Part shown: one piece after another, positions 1 through 55,200 of the stretch
Layout of the letters: each line of letters opens with the position of its first letter
Position numbering within the stretch: position 1 is the stretch's first letter
Source: a virus
Strand: one strand, 5' to 3'
DNA: 64,000 nt
IMG/VR virus record: IMGVR_UViG_3300020183_000007
Coordinates: 1-64,000 of that record
Position numbers and translations under genes: made by a program
The notes under the pieces: generated by a model
Databases searched by the model: none
Seen by the model: only the letters and a program-made list of their open reading frames with translations
What the model was told of the DNA's origin: nothing

Positions 1-279
1 AACTCTTCCATACTTTTCTTTCTTATCAATAATAGTTTCAATTTTGACTTTATGATTTGCTGCGGTTAGCCATTGGTCAGTAAATTCTTTTGCCGCTAAT
101 CCCATTTTCTTTTCTTCAACATTAGAAGTTCTACTTTCAGGTGTATTAACTCCATATAATCGAACTCTACCCTTCTTCAACACATCAAAGCCAAGATCAA
201 TAATGATATCAAAAGTATCACCATCAACAACCTTTTTTACTTCAGCATTATATATCCACGGGTTTAATTTATCTGACAT
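1..279 (-). CDS. SNase-like (thermonuclease) nuclease, truncated by the window edge
   Basis: Not in the ORF track; translated by hand from ATG at 279: MSDKLNPWIYNAEVKKVVDGDTFDIIIDLGF...RVRLYGVNTPESR...EKYGRV. Contains the SNase motifs DGDT, RL-x-G-x-x-TPE and KYGR. Confidence 0.88.
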   Translation of the reverse strand, partial: MSDKLNPWIYNAEVKKVVDGDTFDIIIDLGFDVLKKGRVRLYGVNTPESRTSNVEEKKMGLAAKEFTDQWLTAANHKVKIETIIDKKEKYGRV

Positions 280-35500: not shown

Positions 35501-38500
35501 TCCCTGTATCAGATTCTTTTTCTGCTGCTATTAAGTCTATATAGTTTTTTCTTATAAACTCTACTGCGTTTCTTCTTTGAGTAGCGTTTGTTGACGGAAC
35601 ACCTTGACCACCCATCTGTGGATTATTGGGTATATTAAAATAATCTGCACCTAACAAAATAGCTAATTCATCTACTGCGGTATTTTCAGTGTTAGATAAA
35701 CCTGCGATTGGAATGTTTGAATCCTCAAAATTACTAAATGAGTTTTCGTTTGAGGATCCTAATATTCTAGCAAATTCTTCTGGAAATGCGTCCGTTGAAT
35801 CTGGGTCCATTCCATAAATTCTTGCAAAAATAGCTTTAACGCTATCATATGTATGATAACCAAATCTGAACTGATCCCATATATCATTTGCTTGATTCAG
35901 ATTTCTTCCATTACCAGCTATAACTGATACATTCGGGTCAAAATTTTCATCATAATAAGATCGAGCTTCAACTGAAACAGAGTCCAAAGGGTCATATACA
36001 CTTAAGAATGCAGCTCTGCCCTTACTTGTCTTTACATCTCCGGTTGTACTCAGCTCTTCATCTAAAACGTCATATAAATAACTTCTAGAAAGTTGTTCAT
36101 TTCCTACTAGATCGGAATCTTCACTTGATCCTAAACCACCAGACTCTGCTGAGGAATTAAAGTTTGTAGCATCTAATAGTGCATTAAAGTAACCTATAAA
36201 TGGTTTATCTCTTCCGTCTGGAACTGCTAAAGCATTGCCGCCAAAATCAAATCTGCTAGAAGATATTTCCGCATTTATAGGAATCCACTCCGAGAATATA
36301 TTTGGAGGATCTACCATGTCCTCATCATAAACCTTAAATCTAGAGCCAGCTCCACCTTGAAGTTCATTTATTAAATCCTGAGAAGTTGTGCGTCTTGCTG
36401 TCAGTTCTGATAACTGACCATCTTCTGTCATTGTGTAATTTCCAAAACCAAGGATCATGCTGTCATCCGGAGATCTGGCTCCTCTTTCAAGGAATCTTTT
36501 TATCGGAGCTGCTGCTGAAGATATTACACCTACAGGAACATCGTCTGGCACAAATGCAAACATACATTCCACTGGCTGTGGATTTATACTTAATCCACTT
36601 TCATTTTCATAATTTAACTCATCTTCATTACCAAAAATAGATACATTTAATCTATCGGTAATTCTATTTCCTATATATATAGGAGCGCTAATATATTGCG
36701 AAACGTTTAAAGCATAACCAAGCGCAGTGCCTGCAGCGCTGCCTACAGCGCCAGCTGCACTTGCCATTGTATTTATCCATGATGGCAATTGGTTTAATAT
36801 ATCGGATTCCTCTGAGTTAGCGGTTAATTTAAAACTTAAATTTTTTGATATGAAGTTACCCAAATACCATGCAGCGTCTGGAGAAACTACAGCTGCCGCC
36901 GTATCATCATCATCTCCCCATAGGAAATATGCTGGAGCGCAAACAACAGCCCTATTAGTTCTGGGACTATAAACTAAGACTTTTCTCTTTTTATAATCTT
37001 CTGCTGTTCCATATAAATCCGTAAATCCATACTTTTCTTTGAACTTTTCCAATGTTTCATCATAGACAGTTATGTTATTAAAGCCCGAAGGAGCTTGCGT
37101 AGAAGAGAATCCAGGATTATATGGCCATTTCATAGCAATGTAAAATTGTTCTGCCTCTGCTGCTGTTTGCTGAGAGGCAGGGAGGTCACCGGGAGATCCC
37201 CATTCTTCATAAGATATCTGATTTGATATCTCATACTCAAACGAATAATCATCAGCATTTCTCTTTGCCTCAGAAGAGCTAACTGAGTATTGTGTAATTG
37301 CAGCTGGGTCAACAGATATGCTTAATCTATTAGCTAAAACAGAGGGCAGAGGCATTCTTACATACTTTGTATTTGCTCCACCAATAAAAGACAAACCATC
37401 TACATCAATAATATTATCAATAAAAGTTGAGAACCCCAAAGGACGATCTAACTCTAATATTCCAGAAGATGGCACTAGAGTTAGTTCATTATTTAAAATG
37501 AACTTGCTTTCATACTGAAGCAGGGTAAACATGTTGGCCATAAAAGTTGCGCCACCAAAAGATCTTCTATCTTCTGCCATTGCCTCATTGACAAACCCTT
37601 GAAATTCTTCGGCGTCCATTGGAACTTCGCCTTCATTATCTAGAAACTTTCTTCCAGATTTGCCAATATCCTTAAAATGACTGGCTGCGTTCTGAAAAAC
37701 TCCGCCGTCTCTAATACTATAAGATGTAGAGTCTAATATAATAGTTTCATTGATTGTGTAAAACGGGTACCTAAATCTTGGCGGAAGATTATCCAACTGA
37801 GCATGGGCTTTTGTCATTGGAGCAATAGTTGTAGTCGGATCTCCAACAGGAAGGTGGAAACCAACTCTTGTTAAGCCAACTACTGTTGGTAGTTTTGCTA
37901 CTACCACTTTAGTTCCGTCGTCTTGTGTTTCAGAAAAGCTTGAAGCTAATGGTGAGTTAAAGTTAATTAATTTTTCTTTCAAAAATGCCGTAGGCTTATA
38001 AATGCCCTGTGAATTAACTTGATCACTAGCTAAGCTTGCCATTGTATCTGACAGTTCATTAGATCTTTTAAATGCTTCATAATCAGCAAGTGTGTTACTG
38101 GATCTATTTATATTACTCATAATATTTTGAATATCTTCATCTGCCGAACGATATTTTGGATAGCCAGGTAATTCTAGTTCAGAGCCTCTTTGCGTACTAG
38201 GAAAACCAGTAGTTACAGGTACTACGCCCGAAGTGTAAAGCCAGTGAGGCTTACCATAAAATATTGTAGATCTATCTTCAAAAGGTCTAATGGCTACAAT
38301 ATAATTGGGTAACAATCTAGCGCAAACCTGGAATAAATCCCATACAGTTCTCATATATGTTTGAGCCCTGAAGGAGACTTCGTCAAAACCTGGTAGGTCA
38401 TCATCATCGTTTGGTGAAATAATACCCATTGTTCGGAAAAGATTGGTGCCACCTCTTCCTCTTAATATTCCAAATAATCCACCACCAGCTATTCCAGAAC

Positions 38501-41500
38501 CTATAGCAAAATTTACTCCAGGTATTAGACCTACAGCTCCAGCCAATCCACCCATAAGTATATTTTTAGTTGCGTTTGCCCTACCCTCACTAGATACTAG
38601 TTGATTTCCGGCAGTCATTGTTGAAATTGCTGTTTTGGCTGACACGGACTCATTTTGAGCTTCTACTATAAGACGATTCCAAGATCTGTCTCCGGCTCTT
38701 TCCAAATACGCTTGTCCTTTTAGTTTTTTACTATCTTCCTCCACTAAAGACGAAGCTGTCAACCATCCATCATCTATGTCTCCACCAAGGAACTGAGCAA
38801 AGCCTGTTCCATTTCCTGGATAAATATTTCTTTTGAAAATTTCTAAATCAACCTCTGCACAGAAGTTAGACATTAACTGCCCCATGCTAGTCATTATTCT
38901 TCCATCTCCAAAGAATGTGCTAACAGGGTTTCTTGTAAAAACATTAGTTGCCAACTTGAATGATGCCGCATTGGCAGCTCCGCCAACATCTCCTTGACCA
39001 AGATTAGAATAAACGCTTGCTACAACATTTCTTATTCCATCAGCTCTTGCCCTCTCTGATTCGCTTAATGGTTCGTATAGTGTTGAGCCAAAATGTCTAA
39101 TACCAAATCTATTTTCAGAAAAGACTGTTCCATTTGTAGCTCTAGCAAAAGCTTCCCTAAATCTTGATGCGCCCATTGAAAGCAATCTAACCATTAGGTC
39201 TCTAGGTTCAGACAAATACATGCCAGTATCTACGCCACCATCTATTTTACCTGTGTCGCCTTTTTTATTTGTAGAGTTAACTATTGCACTAAGCTCAATT
39301 GCATCAGACTGTGCTGTTACTGTAACAATTTCACCTTGCTCCACATTTGTTATCACACCATTGAAAACTGTTTGCAAAGAGTTTGGATTAGCACCATATC
39401 CAACCCTAAGATGAACGCGAACTCCAGGCTTTAATCTAATATTATTAATATCTACAACATAATCATTTCTCATTCCTGAGACAATATTTTTAGCTATATT
39501 CAAAGTTCTATCCAAAATAGATTCAATACCTTGAGTAAAGTCTATTGGAGCATCATTTGGTTGGTTATCTCTAGAATTAAAAATTTCAGTAGAAGGACGT
39601 GTAGTCAATTTTGAATACATATTTGATACTCTAAATATTAAAGTATCACCCAAGAGATCCTCTGAGGAAACAACGGAAAAATCTACTATAGACTGCAACC
39701 CATAAAAGTTATCGAATAATTTAACACCAGCAAAAAAACCACCTTCGTCAATTAACCATAACATGTAGGTGGGAAATGCCCTGATCATTCTTCCAGATAT
39801 ATCTCTATACTGTACATCGTTCATCATCTTTTGAATATGGCTACCAAAGGATCCATCATAAGCTTTTTGATACTTATTTAATGACTGAACACCTTCTACG
39901 CCGGTAAGGGCATTTTTGCAACCTCTATCTGGCGTTTGTGTATCCTCAACCTGATTCTCTACTAGTCTCTTGTCTCCATGGTCATCTATCAAAACATTGG
40001 CTCCATCAACTGTTAAATAAAATCTTCCATTGTCTTTATTAATATAGCCAAAATGAGTCCCTAATGCTGATTGCATCATTGCCGGAATGTCTGATCCGGA
40101 TCCAGCTTCTTGCGGATTTGTTGCTGGAATCAAGTATATAACTTTATGAAAATCAACTTCATCTGGATTAAAGCTGACTTCTGTTTCAGTTGCTAAATGA
40201 GAATTTGTCAAAACCTGTTTGATTAAATTTAGCGTTTCTGCACTACTATAATTTACATTACCAACGGAATAACCGGCTCCAGAAATTTCTTCAAATACTG
40301 GATTATCTTCAGTTGATTGTGCAGAAATAAAAACATAATCGGTTAATAAGGCTTGCTTTTCTGAAGTTTGAAACTCAGAAGTTTCTGCTTGTACCACTTC
40401 TTGGAAAAGACTAATAAAGTTATGAACGCTTATGCCGCTACTGTTCACATAGTCTATGATTTCGTCAATTAATATTTTATTATTATTTGCTCTTAAAAGC
40501 TGCGGCAATGGCTCATTGGCAATATCCTTATAAGCGTATCTTCTAAGAAAATCTGTAATTCTATTTTTAACTTGATTTTTTCTTATTTCTATACCACGCG
40601 CATCTCCCAGCTTAGCCCAATTATCACTATAATCAAATTTAAAATCTTTTGTTATATCTGGTTGATAAGTAAAGTTATTAATGACATCTCTGTCAAACAT
40701 TTCAAAACTTCTAAAATAGAAGTCTGGATCCAAATTGCCAACTATTTCATTTTCTTTATCACGAACTTCCAGCGGCATATCGGGATATGCATTAAATGCT
40801 CCCCACAACTGCTTAATTCTTAAAAATGGATTTCTTTTTGACCCAAAGTGGTCAATAAAATCTTTTTGCTGCTTTGATGAAAGCTTTTCTCTTTTTTGCT
40901 GAAATATGTCAAAGTCAACAAAACTTAATTGAACATTGTAAACATGTGGATAATTTGGTATTGTATCGACTTTGAAGTTTAATGGAATAACATATTTGAT
41001 TCCACATAGTGCGCTAATAATATTTTTAATTCCAAGGAAACCAATAACTCCCGTAGAGTGTTCAAGCCTTGCTAATGAATTGATATGATCAAAAATTGCT
41101 CTAATTTTATAAAGCTCTCTTTCACCAAAAACAGTCATTGATATATTGACATATGAATCTTTTCCACCTATATACTGATATGTTGGTTCCTCCTGCATTT
41201 GCACTTGCAACTTCGAAAGGTTGTTTCCAAGACTTACGCTTACACCATTAACTATAGCTTTTTTAGGGTCTAAATCAACTCTGTTCATTGGGACTTCCCA
41301 TTCCTGGAAATGGTAATCTCCCTCCCTTAAACGCTTTGCCTCCATAAGATTTTGGATATAGCCATCAGAAAAAAAGCGATCATACAGTGATAATAAGAAT
41401 GCATCAGTTACTTGTTGACGAATTTTTTTTTCGTCAGGCACGGCTGTTTCGGTGCCTAAAACTTTTCTTTTTTCAATCTCTTCGACAATCAAAGTTTCAA

Positions 41501-43715
41501 TAATATTACCAGAAGAATAAACTGAATCCCAAATACTTTTTTTGATAAAGTTTAAACTAACACTATTATTTTTATTATTGAAAACTGGATCATTCAATAT
41601 ATATGATCCTTCTGTTGGATATAGGGTAAAGTAGTCTACATCAAATGGCATTTGGTCTGGAGTTAGGTAATTCAACAACCATTCTTTTTCTTGTGTCGTC
41701 AACTTTAATATGTTGCTTGATATAAATGACTGTACCTTGTATTTATAGATTCCAGCCCTGTAGTCACTTTGATTAATACCAGCAGTAATTATATCTACAG
41801 ATTGCCTAACAGCTGTCTTAATAGAAGGGGGGAATGTTGGCTCTAGAGAAAGAGACTTGATTTGATCTAAATCACGAATTGCTGGTGTATTTGGAGAAAT
41901 TTCAATTCCGAATTTTGCCAGCAAACCATTCCACAGTCCAAAACTTTGTTGATTAAGAATTTTTTCCTGCTCACTTCTGAAAGAAGAAGTATCAGGTAAG
42001 AACATTTTTGTTTGAGTTTCAGCTGGAGTATAAAAAGTTAAGTTACTACCGTCTCTCCACTGAGCAACTATATTGGTATATAAAACATCATTTTCATACG
42101 TGTTAAGCAGTTCTACTGTGTCATCCGTTAAAGAAGAATCTACTAGCGCAGATTCATCGATTAAAATAGGTCCATGTGGATTTTTCTGATATATATATGA
42201 GTCACTACGAATTATTCCAGTATTATCTTCTGTCTCTTGGACATTTTTATTATCGGACGTCTTTAGTAAGAAGGATTCGTTTGCGTATTTATGCATTGCA
42301 CCCGCTGCTTTACCCATGTACTGCCTGTATTTACCCCAATGAATTGCTTGATTAAAGTCTTTGAGCATTGGCAAAAATGGTTTGTGATTATAAGCGAGCA
42401 GCTCTAAATCAACCATTAAAGAAAATGGATAATTAGGAACTGTAGAAACAGACATAGAAGATAATGCCACAGCTGAAATTCCATGGACAGAATTTATATA
42501 ATCATTTTTTATTGGAAGTATTGGAGAGTATTTAAATGCTGCTACTAATCCACGCAAAGAAGAAAGAAACTTATCTATTTTTTCTTCCGAATCTCCAGTA
42601 TTCTTAAAATCTATTTTAAAATTTTCCTTAAGATCTATTGCCGAAGCATCGCTTATATGCATGCCCCATATTTCTTCATAGTTTGGAAAGAATAATCTTA
42701 AAGAGATTGAAGTTTCTTTATAGCCAGCATTATATTTGGGAGTATTTCTTTGTCTGATTGCTCCGCCAGTAAGTGATCCAGTTTTAAATGCAGAATTAAC
42801 CGTGATAGAAATAGGCGGTACATAAAAATTAGCTGCGCCTAAACGCAAATGAAAAATATCAGGTTTTTTGGGAGGTATATGAGCTCTATATGGAAAGTCT
42901 TCTATTGCCTTACGAATTCTTTCGGAAGTGTTACCTCCAATTCTAAAAGCCATAGTAAATATTGGCTCACCATTTGGAGCAAGACCAAAAGCTTTTTCCA
43001 ATTCATCAATAGCATCCTCTTCCCTATTGAGGGTATCCTCTTTTCCGCCACCCTTGCCTGCATTTGAGTAGTCGCCTGTTACAGCCAACGCATCAAAAAC
43101 AAACGTCATTAAACCCGGCAGGTAGTGATTTATAATAGAGAAAGATATAGGATCCGCTTGAAGATTGTAAACTACTTGGCTTAATAAAGTAAGCCATTCG
43201 GTATCAACCGCTGGATCTATGTGATAATCTAAAGACTTTTGTGTAATATACACATTTTGTAGTCTTTTCTTGCCCAATTCACTTATTTCATAGGCGAATG
43301 ATGCTAGATATAGTAGGCCGGTAGATTCTAGCCTTTTATACAAATTTACCAGAAGAGTATTGTCGTCAATGATTGAAGACAATGTGCCCCCAAGCGTAAA
43401 AACTCTAGTAGTAGCTTCTACCCTTTTCTGATAGTTATCTTTCGCTTCTTCCAGACCAGATGAATAATCTGCAAGGGTTGCATAATGATCTATATCAAGT
43501 ATGGGAAGAATTTCAGGCCTAGTTAAAGAAAAAAACCTTTCAAAAGCTTCTTCTGAGTTTTTGTACCGAGACTTAGGTAAATAATCATCGGTTAGATTAA
43601 GCGGACCAACCGTCATCATATTCACAAAAGCTTTTTGACTGTAATTATATGACAATGGGTCTGCGGAGTTTAAATTCTGTTCTTCTTGATTTTCCGATTG
43701 TTCGATATTAGACAT
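32559..43715 (-). CDS. Giant fused baseplate hub (3718 aa) with a C-terminal SNase-like nuclease
   Basis: Hub motifs RLKPGVRVHLRVGYG, FNGVITNVEQGE and IIIGNADIRPHDLVYL...FEVEQIVHHFTPEMGYITSI; SNase motifs near the C-terminus. Confidence 0.75.
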   Translation of the reverse strand: MSNIEQSENQEEQNLNSADPLSYNYSQKAFVNMMTVGPLNLTDDYLPKSRYKNSEEAFERFFSLTRPEILPILDIDHYATLADYSSGLEEAKDNYQKRVEATTRVFTLGGTLSSIIDDNTLLVNLYKRLESTGLLYLASFAYEISELGKKRLQNVYITQKSLDYHIDPAVDTEWLTLLSQVVYNLQADPISFSIINHYLPGLMTFVFDALAVTGDYSNAGKGGGKEDTLNREEDAIDELEKAFGLAPNGEPIFTMAFRIGGNTSERIRKAIEDFPYRAHIPPKKPDIFHLRLGAANFYVPPISITVNSAFKTGSLTGGAIRQRNTPKYNAGYKETSISLRLFFPNYEEIWGMHISDASAIDLKENFKIDFKNTGDSEEKIDKFLSSLRGLVAAFKYSPILPIKNDYINSVHGISAVALSSMSVSTVPNYPFSLMVDLELLAYNHKPFLPMLKDFNQAIHWGKYRQYMGKAAGAMHKYANESFLLKTSDNKNVQETEDNTGIIRSDSYIYQKNPHGPILIDESALVDSSLTDDTVELLNTYENDVLYTNIVAQWRDGSNLTFYTPAETQTKMFLPDTSSFRSEQEKILNQQSFGLWNGLLAKFGIEISPNTPAIRDLDQIKSLSLEPTFPPSIKTAVRQSVDIITAGINQSDYRAGIYKYKVQSFISSNILKLTTQEKEWLLNYLTPDQMPFDVDYFTLYPTEGSYILNDPVFNNKNNSVSLNFIKKSIWDSVYSSGNIIETLIVEEIEKRKVLGTETAVPDEKKIRQQVTDAFLLSLYDRFFSDGYIQNLMEAKRLREGDYHFQEWEVPMNRVDLDPKKAIVNGVSVSLGNNLSKLQVQMQEEPTYQYIGGKDSYVNISMTVFGERELYKIRAIFDHINSLARLEHSTGVIGFLGIKNIISALCGIKYVIPLNFKVDTIPNYPHVYNVQLSFVDFDIFQQKREKLSSKQQKDFIDHFGSKRNPFLRIKQLWGAFNAYPDMPLEVRDKENEIVGNLDPDFYFRSFEMFDRDVINNFTYQPDITKDFKFDYSDNWAKLGDARGIEIRKNQVKNRITDFLRRYAYKDIANEPLPQLLRANNNKILIDEIIDYVNSSGISVHNFISLFQEVVQAETSEFQTSEKQALLTDYVFISAQSTEDNPVFEEISGAGYSVGNVNYSSAETLNLIKQVLTNSHLATETEVSFNPDEVDFHKVIYLIPATNPQEAGSGSDIPAMMQSALGTHFGYINKDNGRFYLTVDGANVLIDDHGDKRLVENQVEDTQTPDRGCKNALTGVEGVQSLNKYQKAYDGSFGSHIQKMMNDVQYRDISGRMIRAFPTYMLWLIDEGGFFAGVKLFDNFYGLQSIVDFSVVSSEDLLGDTLIFRVSNMYSKLTTRPSTEIFNSRDNQPNDAPIDFTQGIESILDRTLNIAKNIVSGMRNDYVVDINNIRLKPGVRVHLRVGYGANPNSLQTVFNGVITNVEQGEIVTVTAQSDAIELSAIVNSTNKKGDTGKIDGGVDTGMYLSEPRDLMVRLLSMGASRFREAFARATNGTVFSENRFGIRHFGSTLYEPLSESERARADGIRNVVASVYSNLGQGDVGGAANAASFKLATNVFTRNPVSTFFGDGRIMTSMGQLMSNFCAEVDLEIFKRNIYPGNGTGFAQFLGGDIDDGWLTASSLVEEDSKKLKGQAYLERAGDRSWNRLIVEAQNESVSAKTAISTMTAGNQLVSSEGRANATKNILMGGLAGAVGLIPGVNFAIGSGIAGGGLFGILRGRGGTNLFRTMGIISPNDDDDLPGFDEVSFRAQTYMRTVWDLFQVCARLLPNYIVAIRPFEDRSTIFYGKPHWLYTSGVVPVTTGFPSTQRGSELELPGYPKYRSADEDIQNIMSNINRSSNTLADYEAFKRSNELSDTMASLASDQVNSQGIYKPTAFLKEKLINFNSPLASSFSETQDDGTKVVVAKLPTVVGLTRVGFHLPVGDPTTTIAPMTKAHAQLDNLPPRFRYPFYTINETIILDSTSYSIRDGGVFQNAASHFKDIGKSGRKFLDNEGEVPMDAEEFQGFVNEAMAEDRRSFGGATFMANMFTLLQYESKFILNNELTLVPSSGILELDRPLGFSTFIDNIIDVDGLSFIGGANTKYVRMPLPSVLANRLSISVDPAAITQYSVSSSEAKRNADDYSFEYEISNQISYEEWGSPGDLPASQQTAAEAEQFYIAMKWPYNPGFSSTQAPSGFNNITVYDETLEKFKEKYGFTDLYGTAEDYKKRKVLVYSPRTNRAVVCAPAYFLWGDDDDTAAAVVSPDAAWYLGNFISKNLSFKLTANSEESDILNQLPSWINTMASAAGAVGSAAGTALGYALNVSQYISAPIYIGNRITDRLNVSIFGNEDELNYENESGLSINPQPVECMFAFVPDDVPVGVISSAAAPIKRFLERGARSPDDSMILGFGNYTMTEDGQLSELTARRTTSQDLINELQGGAGSRFKVYDEDMVDPPNIFSEWIPINAEISSSRFDFGGNALAVPDGRDKPFIGYFNALLDATNFNSSAESGGLGSSEDSDLVGNEQLSRSYLYDVLDEELSTTGDVKTSKGRAAFLSVYDPLDSVSVEARSYYDENFDPNVSVIAGNGRNLNQANDIWDQFRFGYHTYDSVKAIFARIYGMDPDSTDAFPEEFARILGSSNENSFSNFEDSNIPIAGLSNTENTAVDELAILLGADYFNIPNNPQMGGQGVPSTNATQRRNAVEFIRKNYIDLIAAEKESDTGIIQFFNATIADALNGIKENFFESGVTNSILEYALENKKNPEEAIALSEKIKTPKQLFLLMVGIFRQNLWSTAYGRAWLVLKPNRKRGIITSGGGGSEGQWSFKPVDKIFEAFINPYGEYAKDKNKFLKLLVSTKSEGTGSSTFISGISESVGNFYDRNIGPIMSAIGDGLSGLLGMFKLAMMQMGYAITEVGNFSRQAHILNKVLNDSIYYSLGREGSLLRAVDNPFTREYGEPVVEVRQSFQRLHYLSSFSHIISNQIQENLNGVSTVVTAVSDGKYPITVALDKGAPAERQTEKTVETGLYYDNFVGSGFLGVLHPLMHPLETVRGIAKNIQGTPDELSARRIALAHLRESIKDIYGGELIIIGNADIRPHDLVYLSDVYERMYGIFEVEQIVHHFTPEMGYITSITPNALVTVNDPARWFLSSWINSWFTVQNLRNDTRFYMDNIMASNSGINLGGMVSVDALSDALSPQMIGGLQYTHGSTALIKDIMANQTATTLPQKAEAVIKQYGSSASRSVFQGMTTALTGGVGIAAAAAGAGATGVAGFAMGLSVPIVGQLAWKGWKWIRDNVLDQHGCYVQYLSKNGQPMDAGLSYNQGMVVGRHHSKVLLPGLLGARTKVRTPEGNIFIRSDDLLKSLGWQERQTTDLIRYIDYENALVHARVLQLSGLGPDKTNLQPSLFSVIAKVIKFKDGDTFDVQDVISGAKFTVRFDGIDSGEINTFTVTSNDGDLGVSYSNDSTPSTKMTAINTPGGKAKIFVQSKLENRLVVLRIRINNAASSSVISESDFEAGAEQNTVANYTKDVTESNRILGTVWYYQPESIVQAAKDFVEKCFIDNQIGAGAEQKIKQLFFNSIYQDSPLFVKKDSILNALSALGLVYTSPLSITLDTNTKYGLSNSETIKLYNDLVQYKVLESTYNKTREWPTIFWDEYYENGHPVTLNWELVTNNLATVYTKQLQIEGNSVISAEESAIMPARVGQ

Positions 43716-44180: not shown

Positions 44181-47100
44181 TTAAAATGAGCTAGCGAGCT
44201 GCTGATATGGATCAGACGTCACACTTGGGATCCTATTATACATAGTACTGTTAATCGGTCCATTAGTAAGTCCAGAAGCTGCTTGTTGAAATCTTTCAAC
44301 ATCCTGCCTAGAACCATATAAGGAAACCTTGTAACTCATTCCAGAAGCAGATGCCTGTCCACCAATTTGGGGAACAGAAACATTAGAAGTTGGATATCCC
44401 TGCTCATAAGCTGATCCACCAGGAAGAAGCGGAGGACCCGCAGCGTCTTCTGTTGTTTTATCTTTTTTATTTTGATATAAAAAGCTTCCCGCTATCAATA
44501 GTCCTGCTGCGATGGCAGTTTTTTGAACAGATGGCTTAGAAAACTGCTCTGTTAAATAATCCATATCTAAACGTTTAAATTTAGATGGATTTACATTGGA
44601 TGGAGATTGATCTTCAAGATCTCTCAAAACATTACCAACTATACCCTTTGGTTTATCTTTGCGTCCGACGACTTTATCTGCAGATATTTGACCATTCAAA
44701 AAATCGTCTATTGCGGGATCCAAAATGTCTCTTTCATATAGAGCCCTAGATCTTATGGCATTAGATATGGTTTTTATAGTTTCATCTGTAGTATCTTCCA
44801 CACCTTTTCCTACAGCTTGACTTAATTGTTGCATGTCGATACCTAAATCTGCAAACATTCCAGAAACATCGCCATATTGAGAAAGGTCTAAAGCCCTTTG
44901 TTTGGTGTTGCCTTCAATAATATCCGTAAGCAGTAACTCCCTCGTGGATGATGTGGCGCTAAAGAAATTGTCAACAATATTTTTGACTTGTAAATTTGAA
45001 GTTGCCTTTGTGTAGGCTGCTTTATTCCTTTTCGCCATGTTAAGTCTGGCAAAAAGATTAGCAAATTCTTCATTTGAATCCTCGGTAAGATCAGTTAACT
45101 GCTCAAAAACATATGAGCTCATTCCACGATCTGAAGCTTCTAATTGAAGTGCATTTAATAAATTAAATCCAGTTAAAGGTCTTTGTGATCTAACTTCATC
45201 AATTCCTCTTAATAAATTGTCTCCTAATTCAGTTTTTAATATTTCAGCTCTTAATCGAGCCTGTTCAAAGCCCATAGATAGCTCTTGCCTTCTGGCAGCA
45301 TCGATAAACTGTCCATCCTCTATGCCTTCTCTAAATAATTTTTGTGCGTCTCTATAAGCTGCATTGGCTTCCATAAGTTCGTCAAAAATATTCTGATTTG
45401 CATCTAAAATAGCTTTTGCAGATAATTGTGCTTCAGTAGCGTTTTTGCCCATGCCAGCAGTAAGCGTATCTCTTAGTTCTTTCATATTATCGCCAAATCT
45501 TTTTCTCGCTGCGTTGAAACTATCTTGAGCTTGCTGAGCAATTTCAATTGTTTTAGAAAGATTACCTCTACCAATAACTCCTATATCTGTTAGGGCCGTT
45601 ATTATTTTAGCTTTAGAAGGGGCATCTCCGCCTTCAAACAGATTCTTTAATTTACTAAGATCTTCATCAGTTTGTATTCCTTCAGCAATCCTAGCCTCAG
45701 CGCCCTTTATATAACTCTCAGCAAAAGCTGTAAGGTCATCTTTGTTTAACTTTCCAAAATCAATGAGAGCCTTGTCGAGAACAAACTGTTGCCCCCCTCT
45801 ATGTTGTAGATATCCGAACATTTCCCCATATTGACTCACAGCTTCTGCGCCGCTTGTTTCTAGATCAAAATTATTTCCATACATTCTTCTAAAAATATCC
45901 ATGCCATATCTAGTATCTGCTGCTGCTTCTGCCTCCATTTTTAATTTCAGTCTTCCAGAAGTAAATGTTTGGGTCATGTCTACTGCGGTTTCCGATGATG
46001 GAAAACCTACCAATAGCCCTTTCCCATTGTCATATCGCCTAAGTGCATCGTTAATTGCTTGATCAGATCCAAAAGCTTTTTCAAATTGAGCCAAACCATC
46101 TGCAATTACCGTAGCTCTGTTAACATGCTTACCAAGATTGTTAGCGTTTTCCGTAGATGCTTTTTCCATGCTTTCAAGATAGAATTTATTAAATGCAATA
46201 GCTTTTTTATTTTTATCTAATTGAAAACTATCTAAAGTTTCACGAAAAGCTTTTGAAGCTTTCTTTATATCTGCCTGTGCCTGTTCTAATGCCGCCAGCT
46301 GCACTGGATCATCGTAAACAGAACCAGGTATAAACTGACCGGAATATGCCGGACCTTTTAATGCTTGTATCTGATCTCTGATAGCACCTAGTTGCGTTTT
46401 TTGCTGATCTGTCATAAGATGCTCATACATCCGATAAATATCATCTTCAAGATTCATTTCCATAACTTCAGTCTTTAACTTTTGAAAGCCAAGGGAAGTT
46501 AAGCCCGGATCAACGCCAGCAAAATCAACTAATCTAGATCCTGCAAAAAAATCAACTGTACTAGCACCCTGCTTTAGGACGCCTAGTGATTCGAAATATG
46601 CTCTATCAAAAGTTCTTGCTTTTCCACCATACAATCTATCTCTAACATCTATAATTGTTTCCTCAAGTTCATCTAATAATGCAGACTGATCAATTCGTGT
46701 CATTTCTTCTGATGTGAATTTTCCAGATAAATTTTGCTGTAAAATATTTAATCTGTCTAAGGTTGGAGAACTACCAGAACCTGCCAATTTTTCTTTTTCA
46801 TCTAAAATCATTTGATCTAAAGTTTTCATAAAATCTGCGTTATGACCAAATAATTCTTGATAACTTTCTATATCATTAAAGCGAACAAACCCAATCATTT
46901 CGCCTGCACCCGTGGGCTGACGAGCCATGGCCATAGCCAAACGTCTTTTGCCATTAGACATGTAGGTTCCCAAAACTGGTAGCCCTTTGTCGTCAAGGTC
47001 GAATCCACCAAGAGCATGGTGGAACCTAATAACATCCCTTTCGCTCATTAATAAGTTGTGATTAGAAAATCTTACACGAGTTGTACTGAGACTGAATCCT

Positions 47101-49256
47101 TCATCCATCATTATATTTTGATCAGTCATATCCAAGAACATTCTGCCACTTGATATACCAATCTGGGTAGATTCTGCGTTCAAAGCAAATCTATACACAT
47201 CGGGCATTACTGGTAGTGGTATTCCCTTTTTAATCTTAAAAAATTCTTTTTGAGCAAAATCTATAATTCTATTCATAGCCCTGGGATGCTGATCTAGCGG
47301 AATGCCACTTCTATGGATTTCAAGTATCTCTTGCGCCATATTCCTATTCATTAGTTGAGAAAATTGCTGAGTGTCTAATATATCTTCAGATTGGAAATTT
47401 GCAGCGCTTAATAGGGATTGATAAAATTTTCCATTCTCATCAATCCTATTTGCTTTTAACATCTCGTTAAATTCTTTTTGTAAAGCAAGAGAATACTCTC
47501 TACCCAATTGTTGCGATTGTGGCGAACCAAATACTGCTGCATGAAACGCATCAAGCATAGGATCGGCATAGACTGCACCTTTAGACTCTCCGGTACCAGA
47601 AATGTTTAGAATGTCTGTTAAACCAGATATTCTAGTTTCTCTTTTCGTTGTTGCCTTTGGTGCAATAATAGAATATTTTGTATATCTTCCAGTAAACTCA
47701 ACACTCATTGCTGCGCCTTTTAGAGAGAATATTCTAGCGGGGCGCGCTTGATCTCCCGCATCAAAGACAACATTTCCACGAACAGTTATTTGAGACAAGC
47801 CCTTAGATTTATCTAATTGGCTCGAGGATCTCTGAATTTCTCTTTTTTTCAAAAGAATATCTTGTTTTTCTAATCTACTAGTAGCCTGTGCATACTGTTT
47901 ATCTAATTCATCTATCTCAGATTGATACCCTTTTCGAATAGCTTTAGTATAGGAATCATTTATCAACATAGAACCATCTGACCCCTTTTCCATCTCATCA
48001 AGTAAAACGTCAATAATGTTAAACTTTTTATCTATTTCACTTAAAGCCTTTTCATCGCCAGCTGCACCTTTTTCTAACCTATCTTTCAATAAACCAAGCT
48101 TACTTTTCAAAACATCTGTACCATATTTGCCAACAGTAATATCTACATCTCCACTGTCTATAGCGTCTTGCATAGCTATCTTTAGATAATTGCCAATATC
48201 AGAATATACTTCAGTTTTTATTGGCCCTGGCCCAGTCTGTCCACGAATTACCTCATCTAAAATTATTTTATAAAAATCCTTAGATCTATCTTGACCCCCA
48301 ATCATCCAAGAATCTCTTATTCTTTGCGCTGCGTCTGCGGCTTTTTCTGCATTGTTCATTCCTGAAACATTTTTCAATGTATCAATATCTAGAGCTAACC
48401 CCAGTGCCTCAAAAACTGGATCAGTGTTAAGAATTGAATCAGCGAATGATAACCCAGGCTTACCAACTTCATCCAATATTGATTCTAGAGCACCACCAGA
48501 AACAGAAACCTCTCTTGGAGACAAAACGCCACGCAATCTTTTATCCAACTTTTGAATTAAAGAAGCTACTTTTTTATTTCCCGACCTCAAAGCGTCCTCT
48601 AAAACATCTGGATCTATAGCAGATACATTTGCTGCCTGCATCACTTCCAATGTTTGATCTAAACCTAGAACTTGTTTTTTGCCAGCAATTGTCGCAACCA
48701 AGTTCAAAGCAATTCCGCCATCATCCGTAGGTAAGAGTAAACCATAGCCTTTTTGCTTCTGTGCATCAAAAAAGGCTTTTAGCGCTTCAGTGCCCTGCTG
48801 AGTATCTAGTCCACCTTTATGAATAGCGATATTCATCTCTAAAGCTTCTATACCAAAAAGATTTTGCTGTATGGCGACTTTTTCCATATCCCTTAAAACC
48901 TGACCATATCCCCTATATACAACGGGGACATCATCTTTTGATAATCTGTAAACTTCAGTAATATGCAGCGAAGAAAAATATTCTATAGCGTCGTTAACAG
49001 AGTTAAATACTTTCCTGCCTTCATCTGGATCAAAATAAGATGACCTATATTTTAAAATGTTATCTGCTGGATCGACAAACGGTTCTATTAACCTTTTTTG
49101 GCCAGTAGGTATTTTTCCTATTATTCTTCTAGCTGCTCTAACTTGTTTCTCTGGAGATAAAGGAGACAAGTACGCAGACAAATAGTCGCTAAAGGATTCA
49201 TACTCAGGAATCTCTTGTCTTCGTTTTTCTAGAAAACTAGCTATTTTCCCCAACAT
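44181..49256 (-). CDS. Putative single-subunit two-barrel (YonO/RdRP-like) RNA polymerase, probably virion-associated
   Basis: SDG (D427), QITVR (R493), KG (K513), TTK (K538), GGFDLDD (D753-D756), RQP (R779), NLGKHVN..VIAD (N1040), SETAVD (D1093). Confidence 0.68.
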   Translation of the reverse strand: MLGKIASFLEKRRQEIPEYESFSDYLSAYLSPLSPEKQVRAARRIIGKIPTGQKRLIEPFVDPADNILKYRSSYFDPDEGRKVFNSVNDAIEYFSSLHITEVYRLSKDDVPVVYRGYGQVLRDMEKVAIQQNLFGIEALEMNIAIHKGGLDTQQGTEALKAFFDAQKQKGYGLLLPTDDGGIALNLVATIAGKKQVLGLDQTLEVMQAANVSAIDPDVLEDALRSGNKKVASLIQKLDKRLRGVLSPREVSVSGGALESILDEVGKPGLSFADSILNTDPVFEALGLALDIDTLKNVSGMNNAEKAADAAQRIRDSWMIGGQDRSKDFYKIILDEVIRGQTGPGPIKTEVYSDIGNYLKIAMQDAIDSGDVDITVGKYGTDVLKSKLGLLKDRLEKGAAGDEKALSEIDKKFNIIDVLLDEMEKGSDGSMLINDSYTKAIRKGYQSEIDELDKQYAQATSRLEKQDILLKKREIQRSSSQLDKSKGLSQITVRGNVVFDAGDQARPARIFSLKGAAMSVEFTGRYTKYSIIAPKATTKRETRISGLTDILNISGTGESKGAVYADPMLDAFHAAVFGSPQSQQLGREYSLALQKEFNEMLKANRIDENGKFYQSLLSAANFQSEDILDTQQFSQLMNRNMAQEILEIHRSGIPLDQHPRAMNRIIDFAQKEFFKIKKGIPLPVMPDVYRFALNAESTQIGISSGRMFLDMTDQNIMMDEGFSLSTTRVRFSNHNLLMSERDVIRFHHALGGFDLDDKGLPVLGTYMSNGKRRLAMAMARQPTGAGEMIGFVRFNDIESYQELFGHNADFMKTLDQMILDEKEKLAGSGSSPTLDRLNILQQNLSGKFTSEEMTRIDQSALLDELEETIIDVRDRLYGGKARTFDRAYFESLGVLKQGASTVDFFAGSRLVDFAGVDPGLTSLGFQKLKTEVMEMNLEDDIYRMYEHLMTDQQKTQLGAIRDQIQALKGPAYSGQFIPGSVYDDPVQLAALEQAQADIKKASKAFRETLDSFQLDKNKKAIAFNKFYLESMEKASTENANNLGKHVNRATVIADGLAQFEKAFGSDQAINDALRRYDNGKGLLVGFPSSETAVDMTQTFTSGRLKLKMEAEAAADTRYGMDIFRRMYGNNFDLETSGAEAVSQYGEMFGYLQHRGGQQFVLDKALIDFGKLNKDDLTAFAESYIKGAEARIAEGIQTDEDLSKLKNLFEGGDAPSKAKIITALTDIGVIGRGNLSKTIEIAQQAQDSFNAARKRFGDNMKELRDTLTAGMGKNATEAQLSAKAILDANQNIFDELMEANAAYRDAQKLFREGIEDGQFIDAARRQELSMGFEQARLRAEILKTELGDNLLRGIDEVRSQRPLTGFNLLNALQLEASDRGMSSYVFEQLTDLTEDSNEEFANLFARLNMAKRNKAAYTKATSNLQVKNIVDNFFSATSSTRELLLTDIIEGNTKQRALDLSQYGDVSGMFADLGIDMQQLSQAVGKGVEDTTDETIKTISNAIRSRALYERDILDPAIDDFLNGQISADKVVGRKDKPKGIVGNVLRDLEDQSPSNVNPSKFKRLDMDYLTEQFSKPSVQKTAIAAGLLIAGSFLYQNKKDKTTEDAAGPPLLPGGSAYEQGYPTSNVSVPQIGGQASASGMSYKVSLYGSRQDVERFQQAASGLTNGPINSTMYNRIPSVTSDPYQQLASSF

Positions 49257-49258
49257 TT

Positions 49259-52200
49259 TTATCTAACCCCTGCACTTATGTCAATTTGTTGACCACCAAA
49301 TGGATTCATTACCGGAGTAACAGAACCGCTAACTCCCATGCCATTCATTAAAGAGCGCAACCTATATGACACATCAGCATTGGAGTTCGAAGAGTAGTCA
49401 AACCGAGGATAACTCGGATTAGCCAAATTAGCTTCTCTTATTTGTTGAGGATAGTAACCCATTTGAGACATTTCAAGACCCATGTGCTGACCTATTTTAA
49501 TCTTAACAGAGTCCATATTTGTATTGGGATGCCAGCCCTCCCACCCCTCACCGGGAAGTTCGTGTCTACTAAAATAATCTGTTAACTCTGGACGCTTCTC
49601 AACAGGCATCCCCCATGCTGCTTCGTATATTCTTCTTTCTAATCTTCCAGCTGTAGAAAGTATCCTTTCCCTATCTTCTTCTGGAGCATTAATCATTGCC
49701 TTAAAATGCTCTCTCTTCCTTTTTGGAATCGCTAAAGATAAAGATTCTACATCACTTCCATATTTACCTGTACCAATAGCTTCTATTGGTGCTCCATACA
49801 TTGTTCTTTTTGCTGCTGATCTAAACTGAAAAGCTGCTGCTGCGTCTCCGGAAGATTCTGCCATGTTAGCTAACCTTGTATTTTTTACATAACTTAGAAT
49901 ATCAGCATACTCTTCAAGGGCTAATTCCTTTTTTCTTTCTATTGGTATAAATCTATCTCCAGTTATTGCCTCTTGAAGATTTGCCCCAGTAGAAGCTACT
50001 AAACCAGTCGCGGCACCTAGGCCAGACATGACTAATTTTCCAGGCTGCGTTCTACCTGCAAAGAGTCCGAAAGCAGCTAAGCTTGCAGAAGCAGCTAATG
50101 GATTTCTATCTGCAGCTTTGTTAAGCATTGGTTCTATAAAGCTTTCAAATGGCCTTTGCCATTCGGGGAATGTAGCCCCATAAACATTATTTCTTTCCCA
50201 ATCTTCTACTGCTGTCTGTTTATTAATAAATTTTCTATTGATAAAAGTATCTCTGTGAGCAATGTATTCTGCAGCTCTGGATAGATTGTGGACTAATGGA
50301 TTAGTTCCAGCTTCTTGAGCGGTTTTGCCCACATGACTGTATTCAGAAAAGCTTTCCTTCTGCTGTATAGATGCCACTCTCTCTCTAATGCTGTCTGCTT
50401 GCAGTCTTTCTGATGGATCATCTAAATAGCTGTTAATTTTTTTATCTAAATATCTATACTGCTTAGAATATGGAGCGACATCACCAAGTATTTTAAACTG
50501 ATCCAATAAACCATATCTTCCAGTTTCGTCTGAATGTAACTGGTTTAATCTTTCATAAGCGACTCCGGGTAAACGCAATTCGCCTTCTTGAACTTTTGTA
50601 AAAGGATCTCCCCTAGTAAAATCTAAATAATATTCTGGTCCTGGCAAAAATGGATACTGTTTGCCCATGGTGTTTTGTATTGGATTAAGGTAATCCACAC
50701 CAGTTCTTTCTTTTGGTATAAATCTTCTAGTTATTTCGGAAAATTCTATCGAACCAAAATTTCTTCCACCCAACATTGGAACGTCGCCAAGTCCACCAAG
50801 ATTATAATCCCAGAACTGCCTACTCATACCGTATGCTTTAGAGGCAGACTGTAGAACAGCTCTTTGTGGTTCAAAGTCTCCTTGACCATATCCAAAAGAT
50901 TCTCTGAATGTTGCGCTAGCAAAACCATAGATACCTAAGGCCTCTTGGGTTCTGTACCCAAATTCTTGAAGCTGCACCTGTGGATCGCTAACTGAAATTG
51001 GCGAACCTGCACCAACAATTCTTGGCGGCATCATCCCAGGAGTTTTTGGTGGACCATATGCCATCTGAGTATACTGATTATTTATTTGACCTATATTTTG
51101 CATAGTCGAATATTTAGCAGTATTTAAAGCTCCTGCCCTGCCTGCCAACTGAGCATTTATTGATGCCTGCATTCCTGGTCCGGGCCCACCAGAAGAAACA
51201 CCCATTGACATCATAGGCATTCCCCCCTGCGCTGATCCGCCAATAAAAGCTTGACCAGATTGCTGCTGCGCAGCTTGCCCTGGCAGCATTGGCATGGCTG
51301 CTTGCTGCAAATAAGCGCTTGCATCATATGCTCCAGACTGCCCTGCTGGAGCATAGTTTGATAAGGCTTGGGAAACTTCTTGTTCGTGCATTTTTACTTG
51401 AGGCTTTAATACTCTACCCAAAGTGGCATTTAGAGCAGGAGTTAGCGGACCAAAAGGACCAGAAAAATACTCTCCACTCACAGGATAAGGTCTGTCCTCA
51501 TAATGTTTTCTTTCAAAACGATATGGATCCAATGGACGCAGTGGAGATACATCTGTATAAAATAACGCTCTTTCAATAGGTGAACCATACGTGTCAGAAG
51601 TAAACATCGACCCTGTTTCAATCTTACGATAAATGCTAGGCCTATAATACATTATCTTTCCGCCCATAAAAGGCGTATTACCTAATGGCCAAAAACGACC
51701 TTGTCTTATGGGTACTTCGCCCTCAAAAAGCTGTTCTCTTTTTTCTTCATAGCTCATTCCGCCAGGCATAATTCCCGCACCTAATGCATGAACTTCGCCT
51801 ACAGCTTTTGCGGCAGCGCCAACAAAGAATGGAGAATAAACCCTTTCTCCTCTTGCATCTTTTTCGTTTACCATTCCACCAATTGTTCTATCAGCAGTCA
51901 TAAACGCTAATCCACCGGCATATAGTGGTAATACTCTTTTGCCTATCATACCTCGCGCAAAAAGATCCAATGGAGAGCCATACTGATTTACGTCTAGTTG
52001 CAAACCAACTGTGCCAAAATATTTATTTAATCTTTCCACACCATGAGAAACTGCGGCAGAGAGATTAGAATAATTTTCCGGACTACTATAAGTATTTATC
52101 CCTGCAACACTCTTTAATGCGCCTACAGGATTTCTAGAAAATACGCTACCAAAAGTAGGAACCAATAAAACGTCTGCTCCAGGCCCAGTAGCAGAACCCA

Positions 52201-55200
52201 GTGGGTCTGTAGCTAAATGAGATATCTTAAACGATGCGGTGCTTAGTGAGGGATATAATAATTTTTTAGCTAAACCCAGCTTACCTATTTCTCCAACTCT
52301 TTCAATTGAACCTGTTGCAAATGGCTGAATTAGTTCAGGGGCAGCTTCTAATGATTCTATTGTATTTGCAAGTGCTCTTCTTTGAACCTGAATTTCTTTT
52401 AGAAAGGATCTGTTAGCTCTTACTGAGTTTAGATTGGTTAGAGCTCCAAATGCTGCGGCTTGTGCTTCGGCCAATTCGCCAGCTGGCATTTCTTTAGCCA
52501 TCTGTGCTAAAGCTTGGTTTATTTTAATAAAATTTTGACCAAATGTTTGACTCGTACTATTTGCAATTAATTCATTTCTTTGAATTAAAAACTTAAATAA
52601 TTCGTTTGTTAACTCATCTTCTCTTGTAATAATTGTTGGGCTAACCGAACGAATTTGTGAACCAGATAAAAGATCTGATTCTTCTAATACTTTCCTAATT
52701 CTAGATTCACTTTGGTACAACGTTGCGGGATCAATGCCCTGTCTTCTTAAAACATTTGCATCTCTTTCGATATTTCTAAGTAAGACATTAGCGAAGTCTA
52801 TTTTGTCTTGCACATTCTGAAGATCAGTTATTCTCCTACCATTAAATGTAGCTAAGGCCGGATCTGCTACTTCAATTTTTTGCATTGCACGTCGAGAAAA
52901 ACCGGCTTTAAATGTTCTTCTTCTAAAACCTTCAAAAGCTTCTAGCAAAGCTTTTTCTGAAACCATTTCTTGACCAGTTTCGGCATTGATTACATTTACC
53001 TTTTGAACATTGCCATCTACATCTTTAATGATGTTCCTTCTTAAGGTGCCGGCTTTTGTGATGATATCTTTTCCGGCTATTACTTCTGCAAAAAATCTAG
53101 GATTTTCTGGATCGATATTTCTTCTAGAAAATCTAGACATGAAACCAAATATTGAGTTTGGCTGGTCATAGTTTATATCAAAAGCTTGTCTAAATCTCAA
53201 TTCTTTTTCTGGCGTTACACCAAATCTAGATAGAGCAGAAAAGAATTTACTTCTAAATGTATTTTCCTGATAGTTTAAAGAGTTAAGTGACTCAGCATCT
53301 CTTTCGGCAGCAGCGTTTCTGGCTGCACGAGTTAAAAGCTGCGAACTGTTTTTCTTTAAAGGTCTAAAAGTTCCATCTAATGTTCTAGAAGTGTATTGTT
53401 GAGCCATGACGTTGTAATTAAACGCCATAACATTGCCTTTGGTTTTTCCACCACTAAAAAATAAATAGAAGTCAGCAGATTTATCTGCTTCCTGCAAAAA
53501 CGGCTGAGAAATTTTACCTTGGATAAATTGGAATGGTGCTCGTCCAGACATTTCATTAAACGACTGCTTAGCGGCTAAATCTGCTGGATTAAAACCAAGA
53601 ACTGGTATTCTTAAATCATTAGCTAAAAAGTTTCCAACATTTCTTACAGACTGTTTTATTCCAGAAACATCTAAAATATTACCTGTTTTAGTGATAAAGA
53701 TATCAGGAAGAACAGAAACACTCGAAGCTGTTTTTGTTGGATCAGCCCTAACCATACTGGATGATAATTGATTAATAAAACTTTGAGTTTCCTCATCTAG
53801 ATTTGCGAACACTCCACGTTGAGTTGCCTCGTCAACAGTTATTTGCCTTAAACCTAAAAGATTAAAACCGCTAGCAAAAACACCAGAGCTTATTTGCTTT
53901 TCTCTAACAAGAAAACTTCTTAGCTGACCAAGGTTTTTTACATCAAGACCAACCTTACCTAAAGACTCCCCTAACTCACCCCTAGTTAAGTCTGTGCCAT
54001 CAGCTGATTTTAGTTTCATTCCTAATCTTTGAGCAGATCTTTTAATTAGAAAATCTTTTTGTGCGTAAGATAAGTTATCCAAATCAAGAAAATCTTCAAA
54101 ATCTGCTTTCTTAGTTTTTAAAACTTTTCCAGCTACCTTAAACATTCCTTGTTCCTGGAATGCCTTATACCCCTTTGTGGCTTTAGCTTTTATGGCGGCC
54201 TGAAACTCTGCTCCTGCGAAGAGTCTGTTTGCATCAATGATTGATTGCTGTAGAACATCAGAATTGCCAACTTTTTGAACAAATTCATCTGCTCTATTTT
54301 TTGATAAAGTTCCTTTAAATCTATTTATTATTTCGTCAAATGGCTCATCGCCATCAAGGAGTATTTTAGTTTCGCCTATAGTTATTCTTCTTGATGGCTC
54401 CATAGCGGTTTTATTGATATCTATATCGTCAATAAACTTTGCTATAGTTTTTGCAAAATCATCTCTATCTGACGTTGCAGTTTTTTCCATCAAAGATCTA
54501 TATAAGACCTTCTTATACTCGGTTTGCTCTATTCCCTTATAGAACTCTGACGAATAAAAACTCTCAGAACCCATTGGTCCACCAAATGTTCTAGCCATTT
54601 TGCTAGCCATAGTGGCCATTCTATTGGAAGAGTTAGCTTGAAGATTTTCTATAATTCCTTTTAGCTGCCTTCTGTAGGCGTCAGGATTTGCAGCGCCATA
54701 TTTTTGAACAGCAGCATCAAAGTCAATGGCTCTAGTTACGACATCGTAACCTTGACCTACTTTACGGAATTGATTTATACCCTGTCTAACGGCACTGCCA
54801 ACGCCTCTAAGTCCAGGAAATAAATCTATATATCCAGAATTTCCATTAACGTCATTACCAAATGCGTATTGGGTCGCTACATTTCTTGCCCTTTTAAGCT
54901 TAGACCCCTTGGAATCTTCATAGATTTGCTTTGCTCTAAGATTTCTTGTTCTTGAAAGAATCGTATTAATATCAACTCTTTGTTGATTATATTCTGTAGT
55001 AGCAGCTTTTATCGCTCCACTGGTTTGAGCAGAAACTTTTATAGCTTTTTGAGTTATATTTGCTAAATCATGACCAACTTCAGACATAATATCTGCCAAA
55101 TTAACAAACATTCTTGAAGAAGTTGTTTTCAGATCTGTCGTGCCAGTCGACCTTGCCAAGTCTGACATTGAATATCTAAAATTAGACAGTGAAGATCTAG

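Follow-up and report, generated by a model that had tools for sequence, protein, structure and literature searches.

A predicted two-barrel polymerase core with R-x-P behind a DxDD loop in a tail-module protein of an uncultured contractile-tailed phage

To our knowledge, only one two-barrel polymerase associated with a tail has been published, that of gp96 from the Thermus phage P23-45. The polymerase is fused to the tape measure protein, and the phage also encodes a non-virion paralogue, gp64, which is transcribed first by gp96 (PMC10770324; PDB 8H2M/8H2N). This work concerns P0001, the 1,691-amino acid (aa) product of an open reading frame (ORF) in a 64,000-nucleotide stretch of DNA from a large, uncultured phage of lake origin (the window; positions 1 to 64,000 of the IMG/VR record IMGVR_UViG_3300020183_000007). 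The explanation we consider probable is that this tail-module protein, itself probably part of the virion, contains in residues ~420-800 a single-chain two-barrel polymerase core of the QDE-1/RDR/YonO type, in which the active centre has been rewired.

By analogy, the phage studied here follows the same logic as P23-45, but its tail is contractile, it has two or three paralogues, and the layout of the active site is non-canonical. Both phages appear to carry a single-chain two-barrel core in a giant tail-internal protein at the tape-measure position, both have a second, smaller paralogue elsewhere in the genome, and both giant proteins have a C-terminal Gly/Ala-rich hydrophobic segment, their layouts being compared by eye. 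P23-45, however, is a siphovirus with a non-contractile tail, whereas up to three paralogues occur in the group described here. The polymerase of gp96 also occupies the extreme N-terminus of a 5,002-aa protein, which has no detectable sequence similarity to P0001.

Two-barrel polymerases have so far been both found and defined through a DxDxD triad and an upstream R-x-P loop. An invariant Arg and Pro mark the superfamily; they belong to the 'Pro-gate loop' and precede the triad by 33-45 residues (PMC2919709; PMC9508822). In the known enzymes, R-x-P closes the strand ahead of the catalytic half-barrel. The distance is 33-35 residues in Rpb1 (PMC2919709) and 45 in QDE-1, where R962-x-P964 precedes D1007-x-D-G-D1011 (PMC9508822). 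The QDE-1 loop hydrogen-bonds the 2'-OH of nucleoside triphosphates (NTPs) and contacts the minor groove, and the P964A substitution cripples the enzyme (PMC9508822). The sequence of gp96, read here, has Arg-Asn-Pro 38 residues before DFDGD, while the PF05183 family containing the YonO-like gp99 of Bacillus phage 0305phi8-36 has the canonical order, with R-x-P 44 residues before a DxDGD triad, in an R-x-P-x5-[DE] element. An earlier note on this DNA had remarked that characterised enzymes have R-x-P upstream, and this holds for gp96, gp99 and its PF05183 relatives, QDE-1 and Rpb1 alike.

P0001 departs from this rule. Where gp96 has its canonical Arg-Asn-Pro before DFDGD, the P0001 family has R-x-P after DxDD, 23 residues downstream. 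Window positions 46914-47012 (minus strand) translate to residues 749-781 of the ORF, which start with Leu-Gly-Gly-Phe and D753-L-D755-D756 and end with R779-Q780-P781. The earlier note had therefore read correctly both the order, DxDD before RQP, and the length of the loop, one residue shorter than DxDGD. The loop is correctly placed for a DxDxD triad, but 190/190 sequences have DxDD there, as do both paralogue families; three carboxylates are kept, and their spacing is altered. The canonical Pro-gate slot, at residues 709-718, is variable and indel-rich in the P0001 family, with no residue above 33% and no conserved Arg or Pro. A pairing of 'two-barrel' with 'DxDD' was not found in the literature searched.

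The conservation of this site is extreme. A core profile built from six sequences was searched against 1.84 billion representative proteins and returned 213 cluster representatives; 194 core sequences were aligned with hmmalign, 190 of which cover the DxDD/R-x-P site. D753, D755, D756, R779, P781 and E786 are each present in 190/190, so that no variation was found at the three Asp residues or R779, the positions at which the earlier note had declared beforehand that variation would count against its reading. Candidate counterparts, in the first barrel, of the acidic and basic active-centre residues of barrel B are also conserved: D427-G428 in 99% of sequences (D427 in 160/161), R493, K513 in 88% (143/162) and K538 in 95% (164/172). 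R689 is conserved in 97%. Across 55 full-length homologues of P0001, all metagenomic and unannotated (1,371-1,730 aa, 18-86% identity), only 20 of the 1,691 columns are invariant, and 12 of these 20 fall within residues 749-786. Given such absolute invariance, the suggestion in the earlier note that the domain could be a degenerate nucleic-acid-binding relic is unlikely.

The predicted structure places these residues in a polymerase-like fold. An AlphaFold model of residues 400-900 had a predicted local distance difference test score (pLDDT) of 80.9, with 77-94 over the second-barrel strands, and a predicted template modelling score of 0.76. In this model, DSSP assigns a strand at 734-737, a helix at 739-744, the Asp loop, a strand at 757-767 and a two-residue turn, followed by a strand at 770-780, the R-Q-P loop and a strand at 787-792, reproducing the secondary structure that the earlier note had guessed. 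In an exhaustive structural comparison with 48,161 chains, QDE-1 ranked first (Z 7.1, 255 residues aligned, root-mean-square deviation (rmsd) 5.3, model 18..495 against 701..1029). The eight best-scoring chains of a second comparison belonged without exception to QDE-1 or RDR2, with four species represented (Z 6.4-7.4, 243-256 aligned), and gp96 matched the same model at Z 4.1. Foldseek with the core model also placed QDE-1 and RDR2 first, weakly (E 0.2), and in BFVD it was three uncharacterised phage proteins that matched at E 1e-6 to 1e-4, with pieces of crAss-like polymerases lower down.

Both barrels and their connector therefore align with QDE-1/RDR2 in the predicted model (about 250 residues, Z 6.4-7.4). 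A Z near 7 is middling, and the weight of the match lies in one family exclusively occupying the top places, and in the ~250-residue span. These eukaryotic RNA interference polymerases, QDE-1 and plant RDR2 (PF05183; PDB 7Y7P, 7W82, 7EU1), share with P0001 the same first-barrel motif series and a Gly-Gly ahead of the Asp loop. Unlike P0001, QDE-1 combines an upstream R-x-P with DxDGD, and the Pfam model misses P0001, with Z remaining below 8. The core model aligns from residue about 416 with QDE-1 700-701 onward, which would put D427 within about 2 residues of QDE-1 D709, a correspondence obtained by range arithmetic only. D709 is the cation-B ligand of QDE-1 (PMC9508822). On the modelled structure, a polymerase-like two-barrel core is well supported.

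The same comparisons bear on whether P0001 is a polymerase at all, as acidic double-psi barrels of the MltA/RlpA/3D-domain type are cell-wall lytic enzymes common in tape-measure proteins. This reading is very improbable. Barwin and cerato-platanin barrels do appear low in the fold list, and the gene adjoins a hub with lytic domains, but the two barrels and connector, over about 250 residues, are matched only in QDE-1/RDR2, the first-barrel motif series is polymerase-like, and there is no Pfam hit to lytic families. Nor would a lytic function fit an 860-aa paralogue, introduced below, which lies among replication genes and has RNA-dependent RNA polymerase (RdRP) clusters as its nearest neighbours.

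The second barrel of the proposed polymerase core was also compared in isolation. Residues 668-810 folded alone gave a pLDDT of 68, and only 32/48,161 chains reached Z>=2, about half of them double-psi barrels, led by P23-45 gp96 (Z 3.2). Other matches included the N-domains of UFD1, Sec18, NSF, CDC48, VCP and PEX1, with barwin and cerato-platanin low in the list; two designed symmetric double-psi beta-barrels (DPBBs), aligned from model 19..96 to residues 4..89 of 86-87 (50 aligned, rmsd 2.1-2.4); and the largest subunits of plastid, mycobacterial, African swine fever virus and Drosophila RNA polymerases, exactly at their barrel-A segments. A Foldseek search of the PDB with the isolated domain gave noise, mostly NTF2-like folds, and the exhaustive aligner was needed. 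The DPBB fold that the earlier note had asked to be checked is thus borne out, the isolated domain matching double-psi barrels end to end and the wider core being polymerase-like.

Because the double-psi barrel alignments all begin near residue 683 and end near 767, the second barrel is, at least in the model, a complete and collinear six-strand DPBB that is not circularly permuted, and strands 770-792 lie outside the matched barrel. The position of the Asp loop can be judged in the same way. Alignments with gp96 stop 9-10 residues past DFDGD (D779-D783), the models stop 9-15 residues past D756, and alignments with QDE-1 stop 15-18 residues past D1011. As these distances past the triad are similar, the model places DxDD in its canonical position, the loop that joins the second helix to the last strand, where it coincides with DFDGD of gp96 by range arithmetic.

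The collinear barrel conflicts with the proposal of the earlier note that this is a circularly permuted or strand-swapped DPBB. In that case the R-x-P...E hairpin would be the ancestral pair of Pro-gate strands, displaced to follow the Asp loop but still part of the closed barrel, and the AlphaFold barrel would be partly wrong. The proposal is attractive in that R-x-P-x4-E is closely like the R-x-P-x5-[DE] found ahead of the triad in the PF05183 family and RDRs, and in that a third paralogue reads Arg-Asn-Pro. The canonical slot is empty, with the model strand at 713-717 in a variable, indel-rich stretch, and the pseudo-symmetry of the barrel could mislead aligners. Yet the stretch that more than ten different barrels match, from first strand to last, is model residues 683-767, and none aligns with 722-802; the N-terminal half-barrel has conserved features of its own, in R689; and model confidence is 77-94 over all these strands. 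Moreover, the canonical Pro-gate strand of a DPBB lies across the barrel from the last strand, and a hairpin tied to that last strand by a two-residue turn could not reach it. A true permutation is therefore unlikely. What stands of the permuted-polymerase reading is the DPBB, the invariant residues, the rule-breaking order and the distinct clade; what does not is the permutation or strand swap of the barrel, as R-Q-P is modelled on a hairpin appended to a collinear barrel of residues ~679-767.

Within the preferred reading of a rewired polymerase core, the R-x-P-x4-E loop may be a relocated Pro-gate element, because it resembles the R-x-P-x5-[DE] of the PF05183 clade. The two-residue turn forces an antiparallel return, so that the tip loop would point back toward the end of the sheet that carries the Asp loop. 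Hence the hairpin would run back from the last barrel strand to the catalytic end, and its tip loop would probably provide the counterparts of the QDE-1 Arg and Pro, with which that enzyme reads the 2'-OH and the minor groove of an incoming NTP. Two other candidate elements were rejected. R729, as the canonical Arg, is on strand 4, 24 residues ahead of the triad rather than 33-45, and is only 83% conserved, while an apparent 'degenerate NADF' after the hairpin is due to chance (N 38%, D 19%, only F, at 84%, being conserved).

The layout is not confined to the tail protein. Scanning the 179,608-bp genome record (85% complete) for the motif revealed an 860-aa paralogue with Gly-Gly-x-DxDD, a strand and Arg-Ser-Pro-x4-Glu, in the same order as P0001. 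Its family is strongly conserved, with at least 120 cluster representatives that are more than 50% identical, and has no Pfam match. Using hhalign, a 162-sequence core profile aligned collinearly with this paralogue over 315 columns (E 1.5e-4, probability 51%), from the first-barrel Asp-Gly motif to the R-x-P...E loop; full-length profiles of the two families aligned at E 0.015. Of the 30 ESM-Atlas clusters nearest to the 860-aa paralogue, 21 carry PF05183 RdRP (score 0.95). Distant homologues of the tail protein, with 26-29% core identity, are encoded in four IMG/VR genomes of 202-216 kb that are complete and have terminal repeats. All 4/4 of these complete relatives tested also encode the 860-aa paralogue, together with a third one in open frames between about 810 and 1,130 aa long. 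The third was not found in the 85%-complete record of the phage itself. The sole copy read of the four has GGxDxDD followed by Arg-Asn-Pro-x4-Glu, and a Q-I-R...K-G first-barrel motif.

Judged from these sequences, DxDD with a downstream R-x-P is real, invariant and clade-wide, and defines a distinct clade, as the earlier note had supposed, of three paralogous families with the same order. With a second paralogue encoded in the same genome as the tail protein, as in P23-45, the 860-aa protein is a candidate non-virion polymerase, and would probably act as one in the manner of the Thermus phage system.

The paralogues also inform the idea that P0001 is a pseudo-enzyme: an inactive polymerase-derived module in the tail, binding nucleic acid or protein to grip a DNA end or a partner. 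Exapted domains are frequent in tail-internal proteins, and the non-canonical triad spacing, the empty Pro-gate slot and the failure to recognise a bridge helix or trigger loop would all be expected of such a module. However, the three carboxylates, R779, P781, E786, D427 and the Lys residues are absolutely or near-absolutely kept down to about 20% identity, and the same set recurs in the non-structural 860-aa paralogue, more than 50% identical over about 120 clusters listed. Conservation of this kind is characteristic of catalysis rather than of a relic, and makes an inactive module distinctly unlikely.

The genomic context is consistent with the proposed polymerase core being part of a tail protein. 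Matches to a sheath and a baseplate wedge indicate that the source phage is contractile-tailed, its nearest cultured relatives by sheath being Moorella phage MTATph1 and the Bacillus phage 0305phi8-36 group. A chaperonin-like pair (185 and 209 aa), a 2,231-aa protein, the P0001 ORF, a 148-aa ORF and a 3,718-aa hub follow one another, and relatives with as little as 18% identity have the same gene order, the small gene being 147-154 aa. Homology links the C-terminal end of the 185-aa protein with the N-terminal end of the 209-aa one (blastp E 1e-6). The 2,231-aa protein is homologous to 0305phi8-36 gp145, whose annotation lists it as a virion protein identified by mass spectrometry. In 0305phi8-36, gp146 is the proposed tape measure protein, and was detected in virions by mass spectrometry (PMC2147016). 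Because P0001 is flanked by the gp145 homologue and a gp147-homologue hub, it falls by synteny in the gp146 slot, with the proposed polymerase module inside a protein whose tape-measure role is itself putative.

Phage 0305phi8-36 is therefore alike both in sharing this tail module and in encoding, as gp99, a single-chain two-barrel enzyme. It differs in that the gp99 family has the canonical order and DxDGD, and PF05183 was absent from a six-frame search of the 85%-complete genome record of the phage studied here. Its gp146 shares the slot between gp145 and the hub, and by eye a similar C-terminal layout, although C-terminal similarity was not significant for either gp146 or MTATph1 CDS27 (z 0.8 and 0.5). 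Unlike P0001, gp146 is 2,537 aa rather than 1,691 aa, and has no polymerase motifs or profile match. As the slot-equivalents of the cultured relatives lack both motifs and profile matches, the polymerase module would be specific to the uncultured lineage.

Other features of these genes and genomes were also observed. The length of the gp145 homologue is nearly fixed, at 2,201-2,240 aa in all relatives seen despite low identity, as expected of a length ruler, and either giant protein may measure the tail. In P0001, a second invariant block (G1042, N1046, D1093, G1148 and D1161; residues 1042-1161, window 44181-46130 approximately) lies well downstream of the barrels, and could be a bridge-helix/trigger-loop region or serve a separate function. 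In the contig of a distant relative, P0055, the family gene is split into 1,371 + 252 aa and the hub into 1,900 + 880 aa, which may reflect frameshifts, assembly errors or real splits. The genome record (G000) also encodes a tryptophan-halogenase-family protein (159318-160793, minus strand; Pfam E 1e-100) and a 733-aa collagen-repeat protein (165531-167732, minus strand). The coordinates of the main features are collected in the table.

Table. Features of P0001, its neighbouring genes and its paralogues. Positions are those of the window unless a genome is named.
Feature	Position	Strand	Description
P0001, 1,691-aa ORF	44181..49256	minus	N-terminal half is the polymerase-like core; C-terminal half long, mostly helical; tape-measure slot of the tail module
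First barrel region, residues ~420-566	47559..47999	minus	D427-G428, Q489/R493, K513 and K538 conserved; motif series of QDE-1/RDR/YonO-type enzymes
Second barrel (DPBB-A), residues ~679-767	46956..47222	minus	Collinear with canonical double-psi beta-barrels
R729, barrel strand 4	47070..47072	minus	83% conserved; off the canonical Pro-gate position
Catalytic-type loop, residues 749-756	46989..47012	minus	Gly-Gly-Phe then D753-L-D755-D756; DxDD in place of DxDGD; invariant 190/190
Extra beta-hairpin past barrel, residues 770-792	46881..46949	minus	Tip loop 779-786 with invariant R779, P781 and E786; by DSSP, pLDDT 81-94 in the 501-residue model
C-terminal part of P0001	44184..44534	minus	Gly/Ala-rich hydrophobic segment (~1579-1594) and conserved Pro/Gly-rich tail; near-invariant columns among homologues
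gp145 homologue, 2,231 aa, upstream neighbour	49259..55954	minus	blastp E 1e-48 to 0305phi8-36 gp145
Two small genes, 209 and 185 aa	55968..57156	minus	Have a domain in common; resemble gp143/gp144, the tail chaperonin that 0305phi8-36 encodes in two genes (PMC2147016)
Baseplate hub, 3,718 aa, downstream	32559..43715	minus	blastp E 2e-24 to 0305phi8-36 gp147; PHROG hit; lytic domains
860-aa paralogue P0195 (locus L008/L115)	G000 117958-120540 (own genome, outside the window)	plus	Among non-structural genes; found by motif scan
Third paralogue (L114)	G001:C1:112875-116099	n.a.	Matching ORFs in G002-G004

Several results weigh against a polymerase core with a rewired active centre. Firstly, two of the eight residues called invariant in all two-barrel polymerases are off their canonical places and the triad spacing differs, so catalysis cannot be assumed. 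Secondly, the structural Z scores are middling, the core reaching 7 and the isolated domain 3 (pLDDT down to 68); no bridge helix or trigger loop was recognised in P0001; and the placement of R779 near the Asp residues is inferred from strand order only. Thirdly, sequence comparisons are largely silent. Neither the ORF nor its family profile matched Pfam, PHROGs or the PDB in phmmer and profile searches, and the family profile aligned significantly with neither gp96 nor the PF05183 family of gp99 (E 0.06-0.26) in hhalign. Fourthly, gp146 and its Moorella-phage counterpart have neither the motifs nor a match to the profile hidden Markov model, and the presence of P0001 in virions is argued from gene position only.

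Other searches were similarly negative. Pfam gave no hit to P0001 at E<=0.1, PF05183 included; a tblastn search of 50,697 phage records gave no match for the whole protein, its C-terminus or the 860-aa paralogue; and ESM Atlas gave no usable hit for the P0001 core. The hhalign comparisons with gp96 and the gp99 family did not discriminate between the R-x-P hairpin and the upstream strand as the counterpart of the canonical Pro-gate. Hence it is structure, together with the language-model features of the 860-aa paralogue, that points to kinship with PF05183.

If the proposed core is functional, P0001 would probably be an active RNA polymerase, which would exit the virion by way of the contractile tail to transcribe the first genes of the phage. 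A bolder possibility, which we hold at slightly less than even confidence, is that the whole clade consists of active two-barrel RNA polymerases, one tail-delivered and one or two intracellular, with DxDD and an R-x-P...E element transposed behind the triad. The rule of eight invariant residues would then not be absolute, and searches for DxDxD motifs would have missed a widespread polymerase lineage, found here in environmental contractile-tailed phages of about 200 kb. Across three paralogous families every catalytic-type residue is invariant, yet the triad spacing has changed and the R-x-P has moved. If active, these proteins would show how far an ancient active site can be rearranged, and explain how such enzymes escape profile and motif searches. 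[quoted passage not shown]

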